Positions 37,368 through 49,194 of a stretch of DNA of 64,000 nucleotides are shown one piece after another. This DNA is from Escherichia coli (GTDB taxonomy: Bacteria > Pseudomonadota > Gammaproteobacteria > Enterobacterales > Enterobacteriaceae). The notes beneath the pieces were generated by a model. That model searched no databases. It worked only from the letters and a program-made list of their open reading frames with translations, and had not been told where the DNA came from. The number at the start of each line of letters is the position of its first letter. Position 1 is the first letter of the stretch. The position numbers and the translations under genes are program-made. Where the stretch lies: the NCBI RefSeq assembly GCF_013122565.1, contig NZ_CP053258.1. One strand, 5' to 3'.

Positions 37368-38252
37368 ATGAAGCCTTTTTTGCGCTGGTGTTTCGTTGCG
37401 ACAGCACTTACGCTTGCAGGATGCAGTAATACTTCCTGGCGTAAAAGTGAAGTCCTCGCGGTACCATTGCAACCGACTTTACAGCAGGAAGTGATTCTGG
37501 CACGTATGGAACAAATCCTTGCCAGTCGGGCTTTAACCGATGACGAACGCGCACAGCTTTTATATGAGCGCGGAGTGTTGTATGATAGTCTCGGTCTGAG
37601 GGCATTAGCGCGTAACGATTTTTCGCAAGCGCTGGCAATCCGACCGGATATGCCTGAAGTATTCAATTACTTAGGCATATATTTAACGCAGGCAGGCAAT
37701 TTTGATGCTGCCTATGAAGCGTTTGATTCTGTACTTGAGCTTGATCCAACTTACAACTACGCGCACTTGAATCGCGGGATCGCATTATATTACGGCGGTC
37801 GTGACAAGTTAGCGCAAGATGATCTGCTGGCGTTTTATCAAGACGATCCCAATGATCCTTTCCGTAGTCTGTGGCTTTATCTCGCCGAGCAGAAGCTCGA
37901 TGAGAAGCAGGCTAAAGAAGTGTTGAAACAGCATTTCGAAAAATCGGATAAGGAACAGTGGGGATGGAACATTGTCGAGTTCTACCTGGGCAACATTAGC
38001 GAACAAACGTTAATGGAAAGGCTCAAGGCGGACGCAACGGATAACACCTCGCTCGCTGAGCATCTCAGTGAAACCAACTTCTATTTAGGTAAGTACTACC
38101 TAAGTCTGGGGGATTTGGACAGCGCCACGGCACTGTTCAAACTGGCGGTTGCCAACAACGTTCATAACTTTGTTGAGCACCGATACGCATTGTTGGAATT
38201 ATCGCTCCTGGGCCAGGACCAAGATGACCTGGCAGAATCGGACCAGCAATAG
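37368..38252 (+). CDS. nlpI: TPR-repeat lipoprotein NlpI
   Basis: 294 aa ORF with lipobox LAGC and TPR repeats. Confidence 0.96.
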
Positions 38253-38431
38253 CTGACGTACACATCAGCCCGTAATCTTTTTTGATTGCCATCACCTTAA
38301 CGGGTGAGGGCGTTGTTGTTCGTTAATACACCTACTTTGAGCCGGTTCACACTTTTCAATGAAAATTGCTGATCAATTTCATGATGAGTTATGTAGACTG
38401 GCCGCCATTAATTTTGAGGCACACGTACTAC

Positions 38432-40321
38432 ATGGCTGAATTCGAAACCACTTTTGCAGATCTGGGCCTGAAGGCTCCTATCCTTGAAGCCCTTAACGAT
38501 CTGGGTTACGAAAAACCATCTCCAATTCAGGCAGAGTGTATTCCACATCTGCTGAATGGCCGCGACGTTCTGGGTATGGCCCAGACGGGGAGCGGAAAAA
38601 CTGCAGCATTCTCTTTACCTCTGCTGCAGAATCTTGATCCTGAGCTGAAAGCACCACAGATTCTGGTGCTGGCACCGACCCGCGAACTGGCGGTACAGGT
38701 TGCTGAAGCAATGACGGATTTCTCTAAACACATGCGCGGCGTAAACGTGGTTGCCCTGTACGGCGGCCAGCGTTATGACGTGCAATTACGCGCCCTGCGT
38801 CAGGGGCCGCAGATCGTTGTCGGTACTCCGGGCCGTCTGCTGGACCACCTGAAACGTGGCACTCTGGACCTCTCTAAACTGAGCGGCCTGGTTCTGGATG
38901 AAGCTGACGAAATGCTGCGCATGGGCTTCATCGAAGACGTTGAAACCATTATGGCGCAGATACCGGAAGGTCATCAGACCGCTCTGTTCTCTGCAACCAT
39001 GCCGGAAGCGATTCGTCGCATTACCCGCCGCTTTATGAAAGAGCCGCAGGAAGTGCGCATTCAGTCCAGCGTGACTACCCGTCCTGACATCAGCCAGAGC
39101 TACTGGACTGTCTGGGGTATGCGTAAAAACGAAGCACTGGTACGTTTCCTGGAAGCGGAAGATTTTGATGCGGCGATTATCTTCGTTCGTACCAAAAATG
39201 CGACTCTGGAAGTGGCTGAAGCTCTTGAGCGTAACGGCTACAACAGCGCCGCGCTGAACGGTGACATGAACCAGGCGCTGCGTGAGCAGACACTGGAACG
39301 CCTGAAAGATGGTCGTCTGGACATCCTGATTGCGACCGACGTTGCAGCCCGTGGCCTGGACGTTGAGCGTATCAGCCTTGTAGTTAACTACGATATCCCG
39401 ATGGATTCTGAGTCTTACGTTCACCGTATCGGTCGTACCGGTCGTGCGGGTCGTGCTGGCCGCGCGCTGCTGTTCGTTGAGAACCGCGAGCGTCGTCTGC
39501 TGCGCAACATTGAACGTACTATGAAGCTGACTATTCCGGAAGTAGAACTGCCGAACGCAGAACTGCTGGGCAAACGCCGTCTGGAAAAATTCGCCGCTAA
39601 AGTACAGCAGCAGCTGGAAAGCAGCGATCTGGATCAATACCGCGCACTGCTGAGCAAAATTCAGCCGACTGCAGAAGGTGAAGAGCTGGATCTCGAAACT
39701 CTGGCTGCGGCACTGCTGAAAATGGCACAGGGTGAACGTACTCTGATTGTTCCGCCTGATGCGCCGATGCGTCCGAAACGTGAATTCCGTGACCGTGATG
39801 ACCGTGGTCCGCGCGATCGTAACGACCGTGGCCCGCGTGGCGACCGTGAAGATCGTCCGCGTCGTGAACGTCGTGATGTTGGTGACATGCAGCTGTACCG
39901 CATTGAAGTGGGCCGCGATGATGGTGTTGAAGTTCGTCATATCGTTGGCGCGATTGCTAACGAAGGCGACATCAGCAGCCGTTACATCGGTAACATCAAG
40001 CTGTTTGCTTCTCACTCCACCATCGAACTGCCGAAAGGTATGCCGGGTGAAGTGCTGCAACACTTTACGCGTACTCGCATTCTCAACAAGCCGATGAATA
40101 TGCAGTTACTGGGCGATGCACAGCCGCATACTGGCGGAGAGCGTCGTGGCGGTGGTCGTGGTTTCGGTGGCGAGCGTCGTGAAGGTGGTCGTAACTTCAG
40201 CGGTGAACGCCGTGAAGGTGGTCGTGGTGATGGTCGCCGTTTTAGCGGTGAACGTCGTGAAGGCCGCGCTCCGCGTCGTGATGACTCTACCGGTCGTCGT
40301 CGTTTTGGTGGTGATGCGTAA
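38432..40321 (+). CDS. deaD: DEAD-box ATP-dependent RNA helicase DeaD/CsdA
   Basis: ORF 38366..40321 trimmed to ATG 38432 ([13 protein letters not shown]); motifs [17 protein letters not shown]-rich C-terminal tail. Confidence 0.95.
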
Positions 40322-40346
40322 TCATCGCTGAACAGCGAAAACAATC

Positions 40347-40364
40347 TGTAAAATAATATATACA
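40347..40364 (+). promoter_or_regulatory. Candidate TyrR box upstream of mtr
   Basis: TGTAAA-N6-TATACA (consensus TGTAAA-N6-TTTACA). Confidence 0.5.
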
Positions 40365-40394
40365 GCCCCGATTTTAACAATCGGGGCTTTTTTT
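40365..40394 (+). terminator. Intrinsic terminator after deaD
   Basis: GCCCCGATTTTAACAATCGGGGCTTTTTTT. Confidence 0.8.
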
Positions 40395-40403
40395 CTGTCT
40401 TTT

Positions 40404-40421
40404 GTACTCGTGTACTGGTAC
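40404..40421 (+). promoter_or_regulatory. Candidate TrpR operator upstream of mtr
   Basis: GTACTCGTGTACTGGTAC resembles trp operator half-sites (GTACT...AGTAC). Confidence 0.5.
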
Positions 40422-40474
40422 AGTGCAATGCATAACAACGCAGTCGCACTATTTTTCACTGGAGAGAAGCCCTC

Positions 40475-41719
40475 ATGGCAACACTAACCACCACCCAAAC
40501 GTCACCGTCGCTGCTTGGCGGCGTGGTGATTATCGGCGGCACCATTATTGGCGCAGGGATGTTTTCTCTGCCAGTGGTCATGTCCGGTGCGTGGTTCTTC
40601 TGGTCAATGGCGGCGCTGATCTTCACCTGGTTCTGTATGCTGCATTCCGGCTTGATGATTCTGGAAGCTAACCTGAATTACCGAATCGGTTCGAGTTTTG
40701 ACACCATCACCAAAGATTTGCTGGGCAAAGGCTGGAACGTGGTCAACGGTATTTCCATTGCCTTTGTGCTCTATATCCTGACCTATGCCTATATTTCTGC
40801 CAGCGGTTCGATTCTGCATCATACCTTCGCAGAGATGTCATTGAACGTCCCGGCACGGGCAGCGGGTTTTGGTTTTGCACTGTTGGTGGCGTTTGTGGTG
40901 TGGTTGAGCACTAAAGCCGTCAGCCGCATGACGGCGATTGTGCTGGGGGCGAAAGTCATTACCTTCTTCCTCACCTTCGGTAGCCTGCTGGGGCATGTGC
41001 AGCCAGCGACATTGTTCAACGTCGCCGAAAGCAATGCATCTTATGCGCCGTATTTGCTGATGACGCTGCCGTTCTGCCTGGCGTCGTTTGGTTATCACGG
41101 TAACGTGCCGAGCCTGATGAAGTATTACGGCAAAGATCCGAAAACCATCGTGAAATGCCTGGTGTACGGTACGCTGATGGCACTGGCGCTGTATACCATC
41201 TGGTTGCTGGCGACGATGGGCAACATCCCTCGTCCGGAGTTTATCGGCATCGCCGAGAAGGGCGGTAACATTGATGTGCTGGTACAGGCGTTAAGCGGCG
41301 TGCTGAACAGCCGTAGTCTGGACCTTCTGCTGGTCGTGTTCTCAAATTTTGCGGTAGCGAGTTCGTTCCTCGGCGTAACGCTGGGCCTGTTTGACTATCT
41401 GGCAGACCTGTTTGGTTTTGACGACTCAGCCCTGGGCCGCTTTAAAACGGCATTGCTGACCTTTGCCCCGCCTGTCGTGGGTGGCCTGCTGTTCCCGAAT
41501 GGATTCCTGTACGCCATTGGTTATGCTGGCTTAGCGGCTACCATCTGGGCGGCAATCGTTCCGGCACTGCTGGCCCGCGCATCGCGTAAACGCTTTGGCA
41601 GCCCGAAATTCCGCGTCTGGGGCGGCAAGCCGATGATCGCGCTGATTCTGGTCTTCGGTGTTGGCAACGCACTGGTGCATATCTTATCGAGCTTTAATTT
41701 GCTGCCGGTGTATCAGTAA
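40475..41719 (+). CDS. mtr: Tryptophan-specific permease
   Basis: 414 aa polytopic [36 protein letters not shown]. Confidence 0.96.
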
Positions 41720-41724
41720 TCAGC

Positions 41725-41827
41725 GGTGCCTTATCCGACATTTCTGCTGCCTACACAATGCCTGATGCGCTTCGCTTATCAGGTCTACGTAGGACAGCGT
41801 TGCCAGCTCGGATAAGGCTTCCCGCGT
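41725..41827. repeat. REP/BIME cluster between mtr and yhbW
   Basis: GCCTGATGCGCTTCGCTTATCAGGTCTAC flanked by CCTTATCCGACA / CGGATAAGGC palindromic units. Confidence 0.7.
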
Positions 41828-41836
41828 TAAGACACA

Positions 41837-42844
41837 CTATCCCAACAACTCTTCCTTAACATCCATCGCCAGCTCAAACGAATGCAGGCGCGCCTGGTGG
41901 TCGAAAATCTGCCCGTTAACCATAATTTCATCGGCGTCGGTTTCGCGCAGGATCGACTGCAAACCATGACGCACTTTCGCTTTATCGCCCACCAGCGACA
42001 TGCTCAGCGCCTGCTGCACGCCATACTGCTCAGACGGTGACCAGAACTGATCCATATTTTGAATCGGCGGCGGCAGTTGCCCGGTTTCGCCACGGCGTAA
42101 CTTCACAAAGGCTTGCTGCATTGAGGTAAACAGAAATTCAGCGTCGCGGTTGCTGTCGGCGGCGATAATATTGATGCACACCATCGCGTATGGTTTCTCC
42201 AGCCGAGCCGACGGTTTGAAGTTGCTGCGATAAAGATGCAGCGCCTGGAACAACATATCCGGCGCGAAGTGTGAGGCAAACGCAAACGGCAGACCAAGCT
42301 GCCCCGCCAGTTGCGCGCTGTAAAGGCTGGAGCCTAACAACCACACGGGGATTTTCTCGCCATAGCCCGGCACTGGGCGCACATGCGGATTGGGATCGCG
42401 GGCGTCAAACCAGTCCACCAGCTCCGCGACATCGCGGGGGAAATTATCAATATCGCCGCTCATATGACGACGCAGCGCCATCATGGTTCGCTGATCGCTA
42501 CCCGGTGCACGACCCAGCCCCAAATCGATTCGCCCCGGATAGAGCGTATTGAGTGTGCCGAACTGTTCGGCAATCACCAACGGTGAGTGGTTAGGCAACA
42601 TCACGCCGCCGGACCCAAGATGCAGCGTGGTGGTATTCGCCGCCAGATAGCCAATTAACACAGACGTTGCAGCACTGGCAATGCCGGTCATATTGTGGTG
42701 TTCCGCCAGCCAGTAGCGATGATAGCCGCGCTTTTCAGCCAGACGGGCGAGATCGAGAGAGTGGGAGAATGCTTCTCGTGCTGAAGAACCTTCGGGGATG
42801 GGGGCCAGATCGAGTAGCGAAAACGCAATGGTTTTATCAGTCAT
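41837..42844 (-). CDS. yhbW: Luciferase-like (LLM-class) flavin-dependent monooxygenase
   Basis: 335 aa [29 protein letters not shown]. Confidence 0.93.
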
Positions 42845-42924
42845 AACAGCTCACTTTGTTACCGATTAATCTTTAATACTGCATTAAAGAGTAGTTAACG
42901 TTGTTAACAAAGTGAGCTATATAT

Positions 42925-43803
42925 TTACGCTTGCAGCTCCAGCCCCGCCAGCCGCCGCCAGTAGCCGTTACAGTCGCTGTTCGCCGTCAACGGTAGTGGC
43001 GCAGCGCCATTTTCATTAGCGCGGAAGGCGTCGAGCATCGCGAAAGTGTCACTGCCCTGCGGTGACAGGCGGACCACATCAACCAGCCCTTGCATGGATG
43101 CCAGCTCGTTACCGAGGTTGTACACGTAGCCGCTCATGGTCTGAATGCCATTGAGTACAAACACTTGTTGGTTCTCCTGCGACAGCACGTTGCGCCCGTT
43201 CGGATACTTAATGCAGCAGGTTTCGCACTCATCTTTCGGGCGGTCTTCCGAACGCGCGGTAAAGCAGCGGGCGGAGTAGGCCAGCGGCAGGTGACCGTAA
43301 CTCAGGACTTCCACTTCAAACTGGTTGCGAATGCCCAGTTCATCGCACTGGGTAAGCAGATTCACCAGCCAGTCGCGGGAAAGCTCCACCGGCATACACC
43401 AGCGCATCATGCCCTGTTTGAGCAATATTTTCAGCGTCACCGCGTTGTAGCAGTTCAGCGCGTGCCCGGCGACAAACGGCAGTTTACGTTCAGCGCACAT
43501 ATTCACCACGCCGAGATCGCTGGCTTCAATCAGAAACTCACCGTTCTCAACATAGCGTTTCAGTTCGCCCAGTTCAGATGATGCCTGCACCAGCGCCAGC
43601 GTGGAGAGCACTATCTGCTTACCACTTCCGGCGAGCGATTTTGCCATCTCCAGCCAGTCGCCAACTTTGGTTGCCCGGCGCTTGCTGCAAACCGCTTCAC
43701 CGAGATAAATCACGTCGGCGCTGCTGGTGGCGGCCTGCTGATAAAATTCTTCCAGCGTCTCTTTTGGCCAGTACCACAGCACTGGCCCTAAGGAATATTT
43801 CAT
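42925..43803 (-). CDS. ubiV: U32-family protein UbiV (O2-independent ubiquinone biosynthesis)
   Basis: ORF 42925..43821 trimmed to MKYSLGPVLWYWPKE; Cys cluster compatible with Fe-S binding. Confidence 0.88.
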   Translation of the reverse strand: MKYSLGPVLWYWPKETLEEFYQQAATSSADVIYLGEAVCSKRRATKVGDWLEMAKSLAGSGKQIVLSTLALVQASSELGELKRYVENGEFLIEASDLGVVNMCAERKLPFVAGHALNCYNAVTLKILLKQGMMRWCMPVELSRDWLVNLLTQCDELGIRNQFEVEVLSYGHLPLAYSARCFTARSEDRPKDECETCCIKYPNGRNVLSQENQQVFVLNGIQTMSGYVYNLGNELASMQGLVDVVRLSPQGSDTFAMLDAFRANENGAAPLPLTANSDCNGYWRRLAGLELQA

Positions 43804-43811
43804 TGCTTTTC

Positions 43812-44807
43812 TCACTGCCATTTACGGTGATACGCGCCAAGGGTGGTCTGCGTGCCTTCGGACATCGACCCGAGCGTCTCCATCCACGCGCTTTGCGGTA
43901 TGAAGTTTTGCGGATCGGCCTTACAACGGTCGATAGCCTGACGCCAGACTTTCGCCACCTGGCTGACATACGCCGGGCTACGCTGGCGGCCTTCAATTTT
44001 CACCGAAGCAATATTCGCTGCCATTAACTCCGGCAGCAGTTCCAGGGTATTGAGACTGGTTGGTTCTTCCAGCGCGTGATAGCGCTCGCCGTCCACCAGA
44101 TAACGCCCTTTACACAACGTCGGATAACCTGCGTTTTCGCCGTCCTGATAACGGTCGATCAGCACTTCGTTCAGGCGGGATTCCAGCCCCTGCGGCGTTT
44201 GTTGCCAGCGCACGAAACGGGCCGGAGAACACGCGCCTACGGTGTTGGGCGACTCACCCGTCAGATACGACGACAGATAGCAACGACCTTCCGACATAAT
44301 GCACAGGCTGCCGAAAGCAAAGACTTCCAGTGGTACAGGTGTGACCCGTGCCAGTTGTTTCACCTGATGAATCGACAACACGCGCGGCAGCACCACGCGG
44401 GCAACGTCAAAATGGCGATGATAAAAGTTAATCGCCTCTTCATTGGTCGCCGAAGCCTGCACTGACACATGACGCTCAATATGCGGGTAATGCTCGGCGG
44501 CGTACTCCAGCATGGCGAGGTCGGCGAGGATCAGCGCGTCGGCACCCAGCTGCGCCGCCATATCCACGGCGCGCTGCCAGCGGGCGTAACCGTCCGGATG
44601 CGCAAAAGTGTTAATCGCGATGTGAAGTTTGCGGCGATGTTGATGGACAAAACTCACCGCTTCCTGCAATTTTTTCTCGGTAAAGTTAAGGCCGGCGAAG
44701 TGACGGGCATTGGTATCATCTTTTAGCCCGATATAAACAGCATCTGCGCCGTTTTCGATGGCCGCCTTAAGCGCCGGGAGATTTCCGGCAGGGCAGAGCA
44801 GCTCCAT
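43812..44807 (-). CDS. ubiU: U32-family protein UbiU (O2-independent ubiquinone biosynthesis)
   Basis: ORF 43812..44834 trimmed to MELLCPAGNLPALKAAIENGADAVYIG. Confidence 0.88.
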   Translation of the reverse strand: MELLCPAGNLPALKAAIENGADAVYIGLKDDTNARHFAGLNFTEKKLQEAVSFVHQHRRKLHIAINTFAHPDGYARWQRAVDMAAQLGADALILADLAMLEYAAEHYPHIERHVSVQASATNEEAINFYHRHFDVARVVLPRVLSIHQVKQLARVTPVPLEVFAFGSLCIMSEGRCYLSSYLTGESPNTVGACSPARFVRWQQTPQGLESRLNEVLIDRYQDGENAGYPTLCKGRYLVDGERYHALEEPTSLNTLELLPELMAANIASVKIEGRQRSPAYVSQVAKVWRQAIDRCKADPQNFIPQSAWMETLGSMSEGTQTTLGAYHRKWQ

Positions 44808-45015
44808 AATTTTTCCTGAAGGTTGCGCTATCAAAACGCAAAAATGTTAACGAACTGGGATTTTAGTTAACCTTGCTGCGACAATTTTTGATTTAAGGCA
44901 GTTAAAGTTGTATTGGTGGTAGCAGCAATTTCATATGGAATTGTTGATTTATACCGCTATGTTATTTTTCTGATATGGCAAAATAGGATGATTGTTGAAA
45001 CAGGGAGTAAAACTC

Positions 45016-45540
45016 GTGTTGGATAAACTGCGTTCCCGTATTGTGCATTTGGGGCCATCTCTGTTGAGTGTACCGGTAAAACTGACGCCATTTGCGCTAA
45101 AACGCCAGGTTCTTGAGCAGGTCTTAAGCTGGCAATTCCGCCAGGCGCTGGATGATGGCGAGCTGGAGTTTCTTGAAGGCCGCTGGTTAAGTATTCATGT
45201 GCGTGATATTGACCTGCAATGGTTTACCTCGGTGGTGAATGGCAAACTGGTGGTCAGCCAGAACGCGCAAGCTGATGTGAGTTTTAGTGCCGACGCCAGC
45301 GATCTGCTGATGATTGCGGCGCGTAAACAAGATCCGGATACGCTCTTCTTCCAGCGTCGGCTGGTGATTGAAGGCGATACGGAGCTGGGGCTGTATGTGA
45401 AAAACCTGATGGACGCCATTGAACTGGAGCAAATGCCGAAAGCCTTACGCATGATGCTGCTGCAACTGGCGGATTTTGTTGAGGCGGGAATGAAAACCGC
45501 GCCTGAAACCAAACAGACATCGGTAGGTGAACCATGCTAA
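45016..45540 (+). CDS. ubiT: SCP2-domain protein UbiT
   Basis: ORF 44992..45540; GTG at 45016 gives (M)LDKLRSRIVHLGPSLLSVPVKL; divergent from ubiUV. Confidence 0.85.
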   Translation: MLDKLRSRIVHLGPSLLSVPVKLTPFALKRQVLEQVLSWQFRQALDDGELEFLEGRWLSIHVRDIDLQWFTSVVNGKLVVSQNAQADVSFSADASDLLMIAARKQDPDTLFFQRRLVIEGDTELGLYVKNLMDAIELEQMPKALRMMLLQLADFVEAGMKTAPETKQTSVGEPC

Positions 45541-46037
45541 TTCGAGTAGAAATTCCCATTGATGCGCCGGGTATTGATGCCCTGCTGCGTCGCTCATTCG
45601 AAAGTGATGCGGAAGCGAAGCTGGTTCACGATCTGCGTGAAGATGGCTTTCTGACGCTGGGGCTGGTGGCGACAGATGACGAAGGTCAGGTCATTGGCTA
45701 TGTGGCATTTAGTCCGGTTGATGTGCAGGGCGAAGACCTGCAATGGGTCGGCATGGCACCGTTGGCGGTTGATGAAAAATACCGTGGACAGGGGCTGGCA
45801 CGCCAACTGGTCTATGAAGGACTCGATTCGCTTAATGAGTTCGGCTATGCCGCAGTGGTGACGCTGGGCGATCCGGCGCTGTACAGCCGTTTTGGCTTTG
45901 AACTGGCGGCACATCACGACCTGCGTTGCCGCTGGCCAGGCACTGAAAGCGCCTTCCAGGTACATCGTTTAGCGGATGACGCGTTGAATGGCGTAACTGG
46001 TCTGGTTGAGTATCACGAGCATTTCAATCGCTTTTAA
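45534..46037 (+). CDS. yhbS: GNAT-family N-acetyltransferase
   Basis: 167 aa [25 protein letters not shown]; overlaps ubiT stop. Confidence 0.92.
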
Positions 46038-46326
46038 TCTCCGGGGTTTGCAGACTGCTTAACAGCTCTGCAAACCCTGCGCCTTCCGCTACCAGACGCT
46101 CTTTTTGCCGTTTGGTCAGTTGCTTAACGCGATATTCCGCCCGTAACGCCAGCGAACGATCGCCCACTGGTGCAGAAAACGCCAGCGTCAGTTCTCCTTT
46201 CCCGCGCAGTGCTTTCGCCCCTTTGCCGCTTTGGTGCTGCTGATAGCGGCGTTCGACATCCGTGGTGATCCCGGTATAAAGCTTATTGTCGGCGGTACGG
46301 ATCAAGTAAAGAAACCAGGGTGTCAT
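46024..46326 (-). CDS. yhbQ: GIY-YIG domain protein
   Basis: 100 aa [37 protein letters not shown]. Confidence 0.92.
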
Positions 46327-46376
46327 CGTCTGCGTCGCATGTTAAGGTCAGGCCCACAGTATAAAAGAGAACAGCA

Positions 46377-46799
46377 ATGGAAACACTCATCACCATCAGC
46401 CGTTGGTTGGCAAAACAACATGTTGTCACCTGGTGTGTGCAGCAGGAAGGGGAACTCTGGTGCGCTAATGCTTTTTATCTTTTTGATGCGCAGAAAGTCG
46501 CCTTCTACATTTTGACGGAAGAAAAAACGCGCCACGCGCAGATGAGTGGGCCGCAGGCTGCGGTTGCCGGAACGGTAAACGGTCAGCCGAAAACGGTAGC
46601 GTTAATTCGCGGCGTGCAGTTTAAAGGTGAGATCCGCAGGCTGGAAGGTGAGGAAAGCGACCTCGCGCGCCAGGCGTACAATCGTCGCTTTCCGGTTGCC
46701 AGAATGCTGTCGGCCCCGGTGTGGGAAATCCGGCTCGATGAAATCAAATTCACCGACAACACGCTGGGCTTTGGTAAAAAAATGATTTGGCTACGCGAC

Positions 46800-46820
<21 letters not shown>
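46377..46820 (+). CDS. yhbP: Pyridoxamine 5'-phosphate oxidase-like FMN-binding protein
   Basis: 147 aa ORF at the expected position. Confidence 0.9.
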
Positions 46821-47354
<534 letters not shown>

Positions 47355-47355
47355 A

Positions 47356-48081
<726 letters not shown>

Positions 48082-48153
48082 TTATTCCCAAGAATTGATA
48101 GTGAGCGTAATATTCACGCGCTCAATTATCATAACTTATTCCTGGGGAATGCT

Positions 48154-49194
48154 ATGACTGGTCAGTCTTCATCTCAGGCGGCAACGCCCATTCAGTGGTG
48201 GAAACCCGCGCTTTTCTTTCTCGTTGTCATTGCCGGTCTCTGGTATGTGAAATGGCAACCTTACTACGGCAAAGCGTTTACTGCTGCCGAAACCCACAGT
48301 ATCGGTAAATCTATCCTTGCGCAGGCGGATGCTAATCCATGGCAGGCGGCGTTGGATTACGCGATGATCTATTTCCTCGCGGTATGGAAAGCGGCGGTGC
48401 TGGGGGTGATCCTCGGTTCGTTGATTCAGGTGCTGATCCCGCGTGACTGGTTGTTGCGTACGCTTGGGCAATCGCGCTTTCGCGGCACGCTGCTGGGAAC
48501 GCTGTTTTCGCTGCCGGGCATGATGTGTACCTGCTGTGCGGCTCCGGTTGCGGCGGGAATGCGTCGCCAACAGGTGTCGATGGGCGGTGCGCTGGCATTC
48601 TGGATGGGCAATCCGTTGTTAAACCCGGCAACGCTGGTATTTATGGGCTTTGTCCTCGGCTGGGGTTTTGCCGCAATTCGTCTGGTGGCGGGGCTGGTGA
48701 TGGTGTTGCTGATTGCGACCCTGGTGCAAAAATGGGTGCGTGAAACAGCGCAAACGCAGGCACCGGTCGAAATTGACATACCGGAAGCACAGGGCGGGTT
48801 TTTTAGCCGCTGGGGCAGGGCGTTATGGACGCTTTTCTGGAGTACGATCCCGGTTTACATCCTTGCAGTACTGGTGTTGGGTGCCGCTCGCGTCTGGTTA
48901 TTCCCCCATGCCGATGGTGCTGTCGATAACAGCCTGATGTGGGTGGTGGCGATGGCGGTGGCAGGATGCTTGTTTGTCATTCCCACGGCAGCAGAAATTC
49001 CGATTGTACAAACGATGATGCTGGCAGGTATGGGAACTGCTCCGGCGCTGGCATTGTTGATGACGCTCCCGGCGGTGAGTTTGCCGTCACTGATTATGCT
49101 GCGCAAAGCGTTCCCGGCGAAAGCCTTATGGCTGACGGGGGCGATGGTGGCAGTGTCTGGTGTGATTGTCGGCGGGCTGGCGCTGTTGGCCTAA
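48154..49194 (+). CDS. yraQ: Inner membrane permease
   Basis: 346 aa polytopic ORF. Confidence 0.92.
   Translation: MTGQSSSQAATPIQWWKPALFFLVVIAGLWYVKWQPYYGKAFTAAETHSIGKSILAQADANPWQAALDYAMIYFLAVWKAAVLGVILGSLIQVLIPRDWLLRTLGQSRFRGTLLGTLFSLPGMMCTCCAAPVAAGMRRQQVSMGGALAFWMGNPLLNPATLVFMGFVLGWGFAAIRLVAGLVMVLLIATLVQKWVRETAQTQAPVEIDIPEAQGGFFSRWGRALWTLFWSTIPVYILAVLVLGAARVWLFPHADGAVDNSLMWVVAMAVAGCLFVIPTAAEIPIVQTMMLAGMGTAPALALLMTLPAVSLPSLIMLRKAFPAKALWLTGAMVAVSGVIVGGLALLA

Follow-up and report, generated by a model that had tools for sequence, protein, structure and literature searches.

The locus lies in a 64,000-nucleotide stretch of Escherichia coli DNA (contig NZ_CP053258.1; hereafter the window), in which genes were located by transferring K-12 gene coordinates. 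Two genes on the minus strand, ubiU (yhbU; 43812-44807, 331 aa) and ubiV (yhbV; 42925-43803, 292 aa), form the first and second genes of the ubiUV operon, are separated by a gap of 8 nt, and each encode a U32-family [4Fe-4S] protein. On the plus strand, ubiT (yhbT; 45016-45540) encodes a 174-aa SCP2-domain accessory factor from a GTG start and overlaps by 7 nt with yhbS (hqbA; 45534-46037), the second gene of the ubiT operon, identified from its ORF and annotation as an Hfq-binding GNAT acetyltransferase. The two operons diverge from a 208-bp spacer (44808-45015) with a G+C content of 34.1% compared to 51.8% for the window. The coordinates and layout of a divergent ubiT / ubiU-ubiV trio around an AT-rich 208-bp spacer, as given by an earlier sequence-only reading, were therefore borne out by the K-12 transfer and the base composition. 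That reading had placed the unit at 42925-45540; the gene coordinates stand, but the right end does not, since the ubiT transcription unit continues into yhbS. Co-transcription of yhbS with ubiT was established by RT-PCR in K-12, with Fnr-dependent induction (PMC10470549; PMC10710024). A generic sigma-70 and terminator scan found neither a terminator nor a promoter in the ubiV-yhbW gap, and an Rfam scan of 41000-47500 (E <= 1) yielded no known RNA element, the matches to mir-1285 and a CRISPR repeat being noise far below gathering scores.

Protein assignments were examined with curated models. UbiU matched the NCBIfam equivalog NF047963 over residues 1-331 of 331 (559.7 bits; threshold 440) and Pfam PF01136 (E = 8e-68). 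UbiV matched NF047965 over its full length (362.4 bits; threshold 275) as well as PRK15447 (439.2 bits against 283), and UbiT matched NF047962 (153.6 bits; threshold 46.9) and Pfam SCP2 (E = 8e-20). The families proposed earlier were thus recovered (Peptidase_U32 in Pfam for UbiU and UbiV, SCP2 for UbiT) with all NCBIfam equivalogs passed, which supports the predicted identity of the trio as UbiT, UbiU and UbiV. Furthermore, ubiT is divergent and next to ubiU in the window, as it is in each of the 78 loci whose upstream sequence is long enough. The [4Fe-4S] cluster of UbiU is held by C169, C176, C193 and C232 (CX6CX16CX38C), and that of UbiV by C39, C180, C193 and C197 (CXnCX12CX3C; Pelosi 2019, PMC6747719). 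All eight published cysteines, whose alignment the sequence-only reading had suggested as a check, are kept in the window proteins; the four of UbiU are cysteine in 80/80 orthologous loci and the four of UbiV are kept in 77 of 78 orthologues. Compared with K-12, UbiV has two amino acid differences (N151T, T251S), none at a ligand, UbiU has three away from the Fe-S ligands, and UbiT is 100% identical. The K-12 UbiUVT proteins carry out O2-independent hydroxylation in anaerobic UQ8 synthesis (PMC6747719; PMC10470549), and the 99-100% protein identity suggests that the pathway is probably active in this strain as well.

Over 10.9 kb, the window aligns without gaps to K-12 MG1655 with 97.67% identity. 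There are 49 differences in the flanking genes, whereas the 208-bp spacer is 100% identical, with zero differences against 4.1 expected (P(0) = 0.017). Of 5426 complete E. coli genomes, 5424 match a 421-bp stretch that includes the spacer at 99% identity or more, whereas identity over the whole 2.9-kb unit is only 95-99%. Since the spacer is base-for-base that of K-12, it holds both Fnr boxes validated by Arias-Cartin et al. 2023 (PMC10470549). Genes, order, orientation, spacer and the two boxes, F1 and F2, are all shared with the K-12 ubiT-yhbS / ubiUV locus (b3156-b3159; PMC6747719, PMC10470549); the window differs from it only by neutral-looking divergence in coding regions, and the control region is without differences. 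The locus is almost certainly the ubiT-yhbS / ubiUV divergon by which E. coli synthesizes ubiquinone independently of O2, and the regulatory architecture described in the literature is preserved in it. Its genes, biochemistry, both FNR boxes, three promoters and conservation across Pseudomonadota have already been published (2006-2024). Gene identity, cysteine ligands, K-12 sequence identity, site positions and spacing, and conservation come from the present analysis; the K-12 literature supplies FNR binding in vivo, dependence on FNR, start sites and biochemistry.

Box F1 (TTGATTTAAGGCAG; 44888-44901) and box F2 (TTGATTTATACCGC; 44944-44957) are exact matches to the published boxes. In each the left half is perfect and the right half has three mismatches, retaining two of five bases, one of them the C at position 12, for a total of 7/10 consensus positions. 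The earlier observation that no clean TTGAT-N4-ATCAA is present is correct: the only spacer sites within three mismatches start at 44888 and 44944, each with exactly three, and no perfect site is visible by eye because both published boxes are imperfect. Across the whole window, the consensus TTGATNNNNATCAA with up to three mismatches was uninformative (286 matches, 238 expected). A position weight matrix (PWM) was built with pseudocounts from 63 ChIP-supported FNR sites, which biases it towards consensus-like sites because these were selected at ln p <= -10.75. In the scan of 44808-45015 that had been proposed, F1 was the top match (8.40 bits, ln p -8.78; rank 20 of 63,987 in the window), yet its score was reached by 10% of dinucleotide shuffles of the spacer (P = 0.10). 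F2 scored at chance level (1.41 bits, p = 2.4e-3, with about 0.5 such matches expected in 208 bp), so sequence scanning alone proves nothing here. The ln p of F1 reproduces the PatSer value of -8.72 given by Myers for the same peak, a score short of the -10.75 that the study required for high confidence (PMC3688515).

Such poor PWM significance, together with right halves mismatched at three of five bases, would fit an explanation in which the AT-rich DNA produced both boxes by chance and induction under anaerobiosis is indirect, e.g. through ArcA or another anaerobic regulator. This explanation is exceedingly improbable, and in K-12 it is refuted by published mutagenesis. Five-base substitutions at the chromosomal locus showed that F1 and F2 drive ubiUVp and ubiTp2, respectively, with mutF1 abolishing induction of UbiV and mutF2 that of UbiT (Arias-Cartin 2023, PMC10470549). 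FNR ChIP peaks were observed at the locus in two independent studies, by ChIP-chip in 2006/7 (Grainger 2007, PMC1802558, which also predicted the F1 site) and by ChIP-seq/chip in 2013 (PMC3688515); the summit of the latter maps to about 44891-44894, inside F1. Anaerobic expression of yhbU and yhbV was 14-fold and 9-fold higher (Table S12 of PMC3688515), induction is lost in an fnr mutant (PMC10710024; PMC3688515; PMC10470549), and induction of UbiT is unaffected by deletion of arcA (PMC10710024). The sequence-only reading had named the lack of an FNR site and of anaerobic induction as the outcomes that would speak against it; neither is the case, because the K-12-identical spacer carries the proven boxes, the peaks and the induction. 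Its expectation of an FNR-responsive promoter holds for FNR control itself but not for a single promoter, as two FNR-dependent promoters and one constitutive ubiT promoter are present.

The three promoters were placed from the start-site distances stated in PMC10470549, and the exact -10 and -35 assignments are putative. For ubiUVp, the -10 hexamer is TAAAAT on the minus strand (44860-44865; 99% conserved), with a predicted start at about 44852-44853 that agrees with the published transcription start site (TSS) 36 nt from F1 (PMC10470549). The Shine-Dalgarno sequence of ubiU (CAGGAA, minus strand, 44813-44818), read from the sequence, has a mean identity of 91% across 79 sequences compared to 40% for the adjoining 5'UTR. 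For ubiT, the constitutive promoter ubiTp1 has a probable -10 of TATTGG on the plus strand (44911-44916) and a start at about 44924-44925; the published TSS lies 19 nt upstream of F2 (PMC10470549), and the primer end of the p1 fusion maps to 44928. The second promoter, ubiTp2 (TGGCAAAAT), has an extended -10 on the plus strand (TGG CAAAAT, 44976-44984; 97% conserved) and a start at about 44990-44991, with the published TSS 33 nt downstream of F2 (PMC10470549) and an anaerobic sigma70 ChIP peak (PMC3688515) mapping to about 44987. The Shine-Dalgarno sequence of ubiT (GGGAG, plus strand, 45003-45007; 96% conserved) lies 8 nt before the GTG start, which is itself conserved in the alignment blocks. 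A generic sigma-70 scan of the spacer missed all three real promoters, its single match being one that overlaps the start codon of ubiU. The first base of TAAAAT lies 29.5 bp from the centre of F1, and CAAAAT lies 28.5 bp from that of F2. Published start sites put the centres at -42.5 and -39.5, and with the predicted starts they fall at about -41.5 to -42.5 and -39.5 to -40.5. Both are within the range of class II FNR-activated promoters (box at -41.5 +/- 4; Myers 2013, PMC3688515), and ubiUVp and ubiTp2 likewise have a recognizable -10, lack a -35, and are FNR-dependent according to the literature. F1 and F2 differ from such promoters in being half-site-like, with a perfect TTGAT and a degenerate half that is itself about 99% conserved.

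A phylogenetic footprint of 79 sequences was generated (the window and 78 other Enterobacteriaceae species, in which the layout is always divergent). F1 is exact in 75 of the 79 sequences, reading TTGATTT[AG]AGGCAG, and F2 is exact in 71/79, reading TTGATTTA[CT][AG]CCGC. Of the 75 orthologues whose F1 is exact, 72 have the ubiUVp -10 at a distance of exactly 22 bp from it; in the remaining three, no ATTTTA was found upstream. In each of the 71 orthologues that have F2, the ubiTp2 -10 ([CT]A[ACG]AAT) starts 21 bp past the box. Wherever both elements were located, this box-to--10 spacing is constant, while the distance between F1 and F2 varies from 56 to 67 bp, a pattern in keeping with the independence of the two modules seen in the F1 and F2 mutants. 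Including their non-consensus halves, the boxes are about 99% conserved compared to 40-57% identity in neighbouring DNA, a further argument against chance matches. These findings agree with the divergent ubiT / ubiUV "architecture 3" of Pseudomonadota in both layout and FNR motif, which was found between ubiU and ubiT in 96% of loci (Kazemzadeh et al. 2024, PMC11707229). That study gives motif presence, whereas the present footprint adds two-box resolution, fixed box-to--10 spacing and extra conserved blocks.

In the best-supported model, [4Fe-4S]-FNR dimers bind two independent half-site-like boxes as O2 falls. At F1, some 41.5-42.5 bp before the start of ubiUV, FNR serves as the class II activator of ubiUVp, which has a good -10 (TAAAAT) but lacks a -35, and FNR at F2, about 40 bp upstream of the ubiTp2 start, activates an extended -10 promoter. 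The Fnr-independent ubiTp1 (TSS about 44925) maintains basal aerobic levels of UbiT and YhbS. The products are a UbiU-UbiV heterodimer with one [4Fe-4S] cluster per subunit, predicted to perform O2-independent ring hydroxylations, and UbiT, the SCP2 lipid-binding factor.

The TTGATT of F1 is likely also the -35 of ubiTp1. It is separated by a 17-bp spacer from TATTGG, and the arrangement TTGATT-N17-TATTG[AG] is preserved in 72/75 orthologues. The published p1 start (about 44925) is 8-9 nt past the TATTGG hexamer, and the centre of F1 would sit near -30 of p1. F1 might then serve a dual role, with FNR bound there both activating ubiUVp and occluding ubiTp1, thereby switching anaerobic ubiT transcription from p1 to p2. 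This fuller proposal is possible but doubtful. The TATTGG hexamer has no T at -7, where one is usual, and was not picked up in the sigma-70 scan, p1 was reported as "not activated" by Fnr (PMC10470549), and mutF1 (TTGAT to GATGA) had no effect on UbiT under anaerobic conditions, where p2 dominates (PMC10470549).

Two further conserved blocks flank the core of ubiUVp. The first GTTAAC (44846-44851), which falls at about +2 to +8 in the transcript of ubiUV, has a mean identity of 95%; its G, T, T and A are present in 79/79 sequences, its fifth base is A in 75/79, and its sixth is C in 58/79 and T in 20. The second, GTTAACC (44866-44872), lies immediately upstream of the ubiUVp -10, and its TTAACC is essentially invariant in the 79 sequences. 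Together they form GTTAAC-N14-GTTAAC around the -10 and TSS, which may represent an operator for a second DNA-binding protein, or an mRNA 5'-end element, additional to FNR. We consider this rather unlikely. The blocks are 95-96% conserved with an invariant TTAA (79/79), compared to just 40-57% for the -35-to--10 spacer and the mid-5'UTR, and the -10 hexamer is definable without either block. However, conservation beside the -10 and at +1 to +8 may reflect constraints on the core promoter or initial transcript, and it is inflated by shared ancestry, as all 79 sequences belong to one family, the Enterobacteriaceae. By-eye comparison with regulator site patterns gave no fit of GTTAAC to ArcA, NarL, IscR type 2, IHF, CRP, LacI-family or marbox sites, and the 20-bp spacing is not known to fit any dimer. 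The ArcA pattern has an 11-bp direct-repeat spacing. In PMC10470549, PMC3688515, PMC1802558, PMC11707229 and PMC10710024, which were searched on other subjects, no role for the blocks emerged.

The locus therefore offers a calibration case with two FNR sites proven by mutagenesis. When AT-rich intergenic sequence is scanned with a PWM, F2 does not stand out statistically and F1 does so only marginally, whereas the spacing to the -10 elements and the phylogenetic footprint reveal both clearly. A combined scheme can also be put forward, with a low probability, in which the GTTAAC pair and the non-consensus halves GGCAG (F1) and CCGC (F2) contact a second regulator or form an mRNA 5'-end element, with F1 also serving as the -35 of ubiTp1 and FNR switching ubiT from p1 to p2. 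If this were true, the second element would, e.g., hold ubiUV off under aerobic conditions or adjust its expression to nitrate or iron. The leftover conserved blocks represent a small, cheap lead for ubiUV regulation.

Window positions 38292-49188 aligned without gaps to the reverse complement of K-12 MG1655 3,297,104-3,308,000 (~10.9 kb, 97.67% identity), and K-12 gene coordinates were transferred through this alignment. This placed ubiV (K-12 yhbV; 42925-43803) and, after an 8-nt gap, ubiU (yhbU; 43812-44807) on the minus strand, divergent from ubiT (yhbT; 45016-45540, GTG start) and yhbS/hqbA (45534-46037) on the plus strand. The G+C content of the spacer (44808-45015) was 34.1% versus 51.8% for the window; the divergent arrangement around an AT-rich 208-bp control region described in the sequence-only reading was thus borne out. 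Longer ORFs from a mechanical ORF list, available for all three ubi genes, were rejected in favor of the K-12 starts, since a conserved Shine-Dalgarno precedes each of these and the published cysteine numbering fits only a 292-aa UbiV. The unit had been drawn as 42925-45540, and its gene coordinates stand but its right end does not: yhbS/hqbA is carried on the ubiT transcript according to RT-PCR (PMC10470549; also PMC10710024), and the right-hand unit therefore reaches 46037. The window DNA is E. coli-like, yet no complete RefSeq E. coli genome is close to it: of the 5426 compared, the best matched at 99.2% (first 20 kb) and 98.7-98.8% (ubi region).

All 208 bases of the spacer were identical to K-12, versus 49 differences in the flanking genes; the rate in those genes predicts 4.1 differences for the spacer (P(0) = 0.017). 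Furthermore, of 5426 complete E. coli genomes, 5424 matched a 421-bp stretch across the spacer at 99% identity or more, against only 95-99% for the 2.9-kb unit as a whole. Because the DNA is identical, K-12 experiments apply directly to the window spacer. Arias-Cartin et al. 2023 (PMC10470549) described two Fnr boxes: F1 (TTGATTTAAGGCAG), 36 nt upstream of the start site of the ubiUV promoter ubiUVp, and F2 (TTGATTTATACCGC), with the constitutive ubiT promoter ubiTp1 19 nt upstream of it and the Fnr-dependent ubiTp2 33 nt downstream. The boxes were located by sequence at 44888-44901 and 44944-44957, respectively. Five-base substitutions in F1 abolished UbiV production, substitution or deletion of F2 abolished anaerobic UbiT induction, and mutations in each box spared the other promoter (PMC10470549). 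An FNR ChIP-chip target at yhbT/yhbU, with F1 as the predicted box, was reported by Grainger et al. (NAR 2007; PMC1802558), and Myers et al. 2013 (PMC3688515) found a ChIP-seq/chip peak, classed yhbUV as directly activated and gave aerobic/anaerobic expression ratios of 0.07 (yhbU), 0.115 (yhbV), 0.49 (yhbT) and 0.47 (yhbS). With an old-to-new K-12 coordinate offset of 1978 bp, calibrated on two flanking predicted sites, the Myers FNR summit mapped to ~44891-44894, within F1, and an anaerobically enriched sigma-70 peak to ~44987, adjoining ubiTp2. Identity to K-12, mutagenesis, ChIP peaks and expression ratios together uphold the FNR-responsive control anticipated from sequence.

The sequence-only reading saw no clean TTGAT-N4-ATCAA, in agreement with the only two spacer sites within three mismatches, F1 and F2, each having a perfect left half and three mismatches in the right. 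The FNR PWM scan of 44808-45015 that it suggested was performed with a symmetrised matrix built on the 63 sites with ChIP support that Myers' Table S6 lists. F1 was the top spacer match (8.40 bits, ln p = -8.78, rank 20 of 63,987 window positions; Myers' own ln p for the peak is -8.72, PMC3688515), but 10% of dinucleotide shuffles of the AT-rich spacer reached its score. F2 was at chance level (1.41 bits, p = 2.4e-3, about half a match this good being expected in 208 bp). The PWM scan by itself would not have decided the FNR question. With both strands counted together, the 8-mer TTGATTTA occurred only three times in the 64-kb window, two of them forming the F1 and F2 left halves (44888 and 44944), which point the same way at a distance of 56 bp. 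Elsewhere, the fifth-best window match (TTGATTGCCATCAC, 38282-38295, 11.2 bits) lies ~35 bp from the mapped Myers 'deaD' FNR ChIP peak (old 3,306,070; window ~38245-38252) and is possibly the site beneath it.

A UbiU scan with one genome per species yielded 80 loci, all Enterobacteriaceae (92-99% protein identity), and ubiT was divergently upstream in all 78 with enough upstream sequence (spacers 205-259 bp). Aligned spacers averaged 75% identity to the window in sharply marked blocks: F1 (95%), F2 (87%, its two spacer positions varying), the ubiUVp -10 TAAAAT (44865-44860, minus strand; 99%), the ubiTp2 extended -10 TGGCAAAAT (44976-44984; 97%) and two Shine-Dalgarno regions (91-96%), versus 40-57% in the mid ubiU 5'UTR, promoter spacer and p1 start region. 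F1 read TTGATTT[AG]AGGCAG in 75 of 79 sequences and F2 TTGATTTA[CT][AG]CCGC in 71 of 79. The distance to the -10 was 22 bp for F1 (72/72 with the -10 located) and 21 bp for F2 (71/71 with F2). Box centres lie 29.5 bp (F1) and 28.5 bp (F2) from the first -10 base, a class II geometry (-41.5 +/- 4 in Myers' definition, PMC3688515). The F1-F2 distance, 56 bp in Escherichia and 63-67 bp elsewhere, fits two independent modules. On the computational side, the FNR question is settled by geometry and conservation. Across Pseudomonadota, 96% of divergent loci were reported to have FNR motifs in the ubiU-ubiT interval (Kazemzadeh et al. 2024, PMC11707229).

Other conserved blocks, to which no known motif was found to fit, are minor leads. 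GTTAAC (44846-51) and GTTAACC (44866-72), nearly invariant, flank the ubiUVp -10 and start site, and the non-consensus halves GGCAG (F1) and CCGC (F2) are ~99% conserved, each retaining the C of position 12. In 72 of 75 sequences 17 bp separate the TTGATT of F1 from TATTG[AG], a spacing at which TTGATT would be the -35 of ubiTp1. FNR might occlude p1; in the published work, UbiT in mutF1 (TTGAT to GATGA) was assayed under anaerobiosis only (PMC10470549).

The anticipated protein families were recovered: Pfam assigned Peptidase_U32 to UbiU and UbiV and SCP2 to UbiT, and all three were well over the curated cut-offs of their NCBIfam equivalog models. Alignment of the published [4Fe-4S] ligands (UbiU C169/C176/C193/C232, UbiV C39/C180/C193/C197; Pelosi et al. 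2019, PMC6747719), a check also suggested earlier, found cysteine at all eight positions in the window and, among other Enterobacteriaceae, in 80 of 80 UbiU and 77 of 78 UbiV orthologues. Compared with K-12, UbiT is identical, while UbiU and UbiV differ at three and two residues, all non-ligand.

Downstream of ubiV, the entire 80-bp gap to the yhbW start (42845-42924) is a long imperfect palindrome, present in 56 sequences (the window and 55 Enterobacteriaceae loci). The minus-strand RNA has a folding energy of -29.5 kcal/mol (z = -5.3), matched by none of 200 shuffles. There is almost no variation in its 12-bp outer arms, GCTCACTTTGTT and AACAAAGTGAGC (two G-U changes in 41 distinct sequences), and the 3' arm stops 4 nt short of the yhbW ATG; in 6 of 56 sequences (e.g. 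Klebsiella, Raoultella, Kluyvera) the element is split by an insertion and ~65 bp longer. The left arm looks marbox-like. In many E. coli strains an additional ~125 bp are inserted between the palindrome and the ubiV stop codon (e.g. E2865, L001 620-745, versus window 42918-42925). This insert contains GTGAATCCCCAGGAGCTTACATAAGTAAGTGACTGGGGTGA, which we take to be an ERIC/IRU repeat; the window and K-12 both lack the insert. The gene yhbW (41837-42844), on the same strand as yhbU and yhbV and downstream of both, is a direct MarA/SoxS/Rob/RamA target (PMC4310594). Its wild-type aerobic/anaerobic ratio is 6.8, higher in air, versus 0.07 for yhbU and 0.12 for yhbV (Myers 2013 Table S12, PMC3688515). 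O2 regulates ubiV and yhbW in opposite directions, though no terminator was predicted in the gap; speculatively, where transcription runs on from ubiUV into yhbW, the hairpin might keep yhbW from being translated.

Overall, the original observation is confirmed and its interpretation supported, for a system already known in full experimental detail. At low O2, holo-FNR bound at F1 and F2 would act as a class II activator to switch on ubiUVp and ubiTp2, while ubiTp1 would provide basal UbiT and YhbS in air. UbiU and UbiV, translated from a single mRNA, would perform the hydroxylations that need no O2, and UbiT would be their lipid-binding partner.
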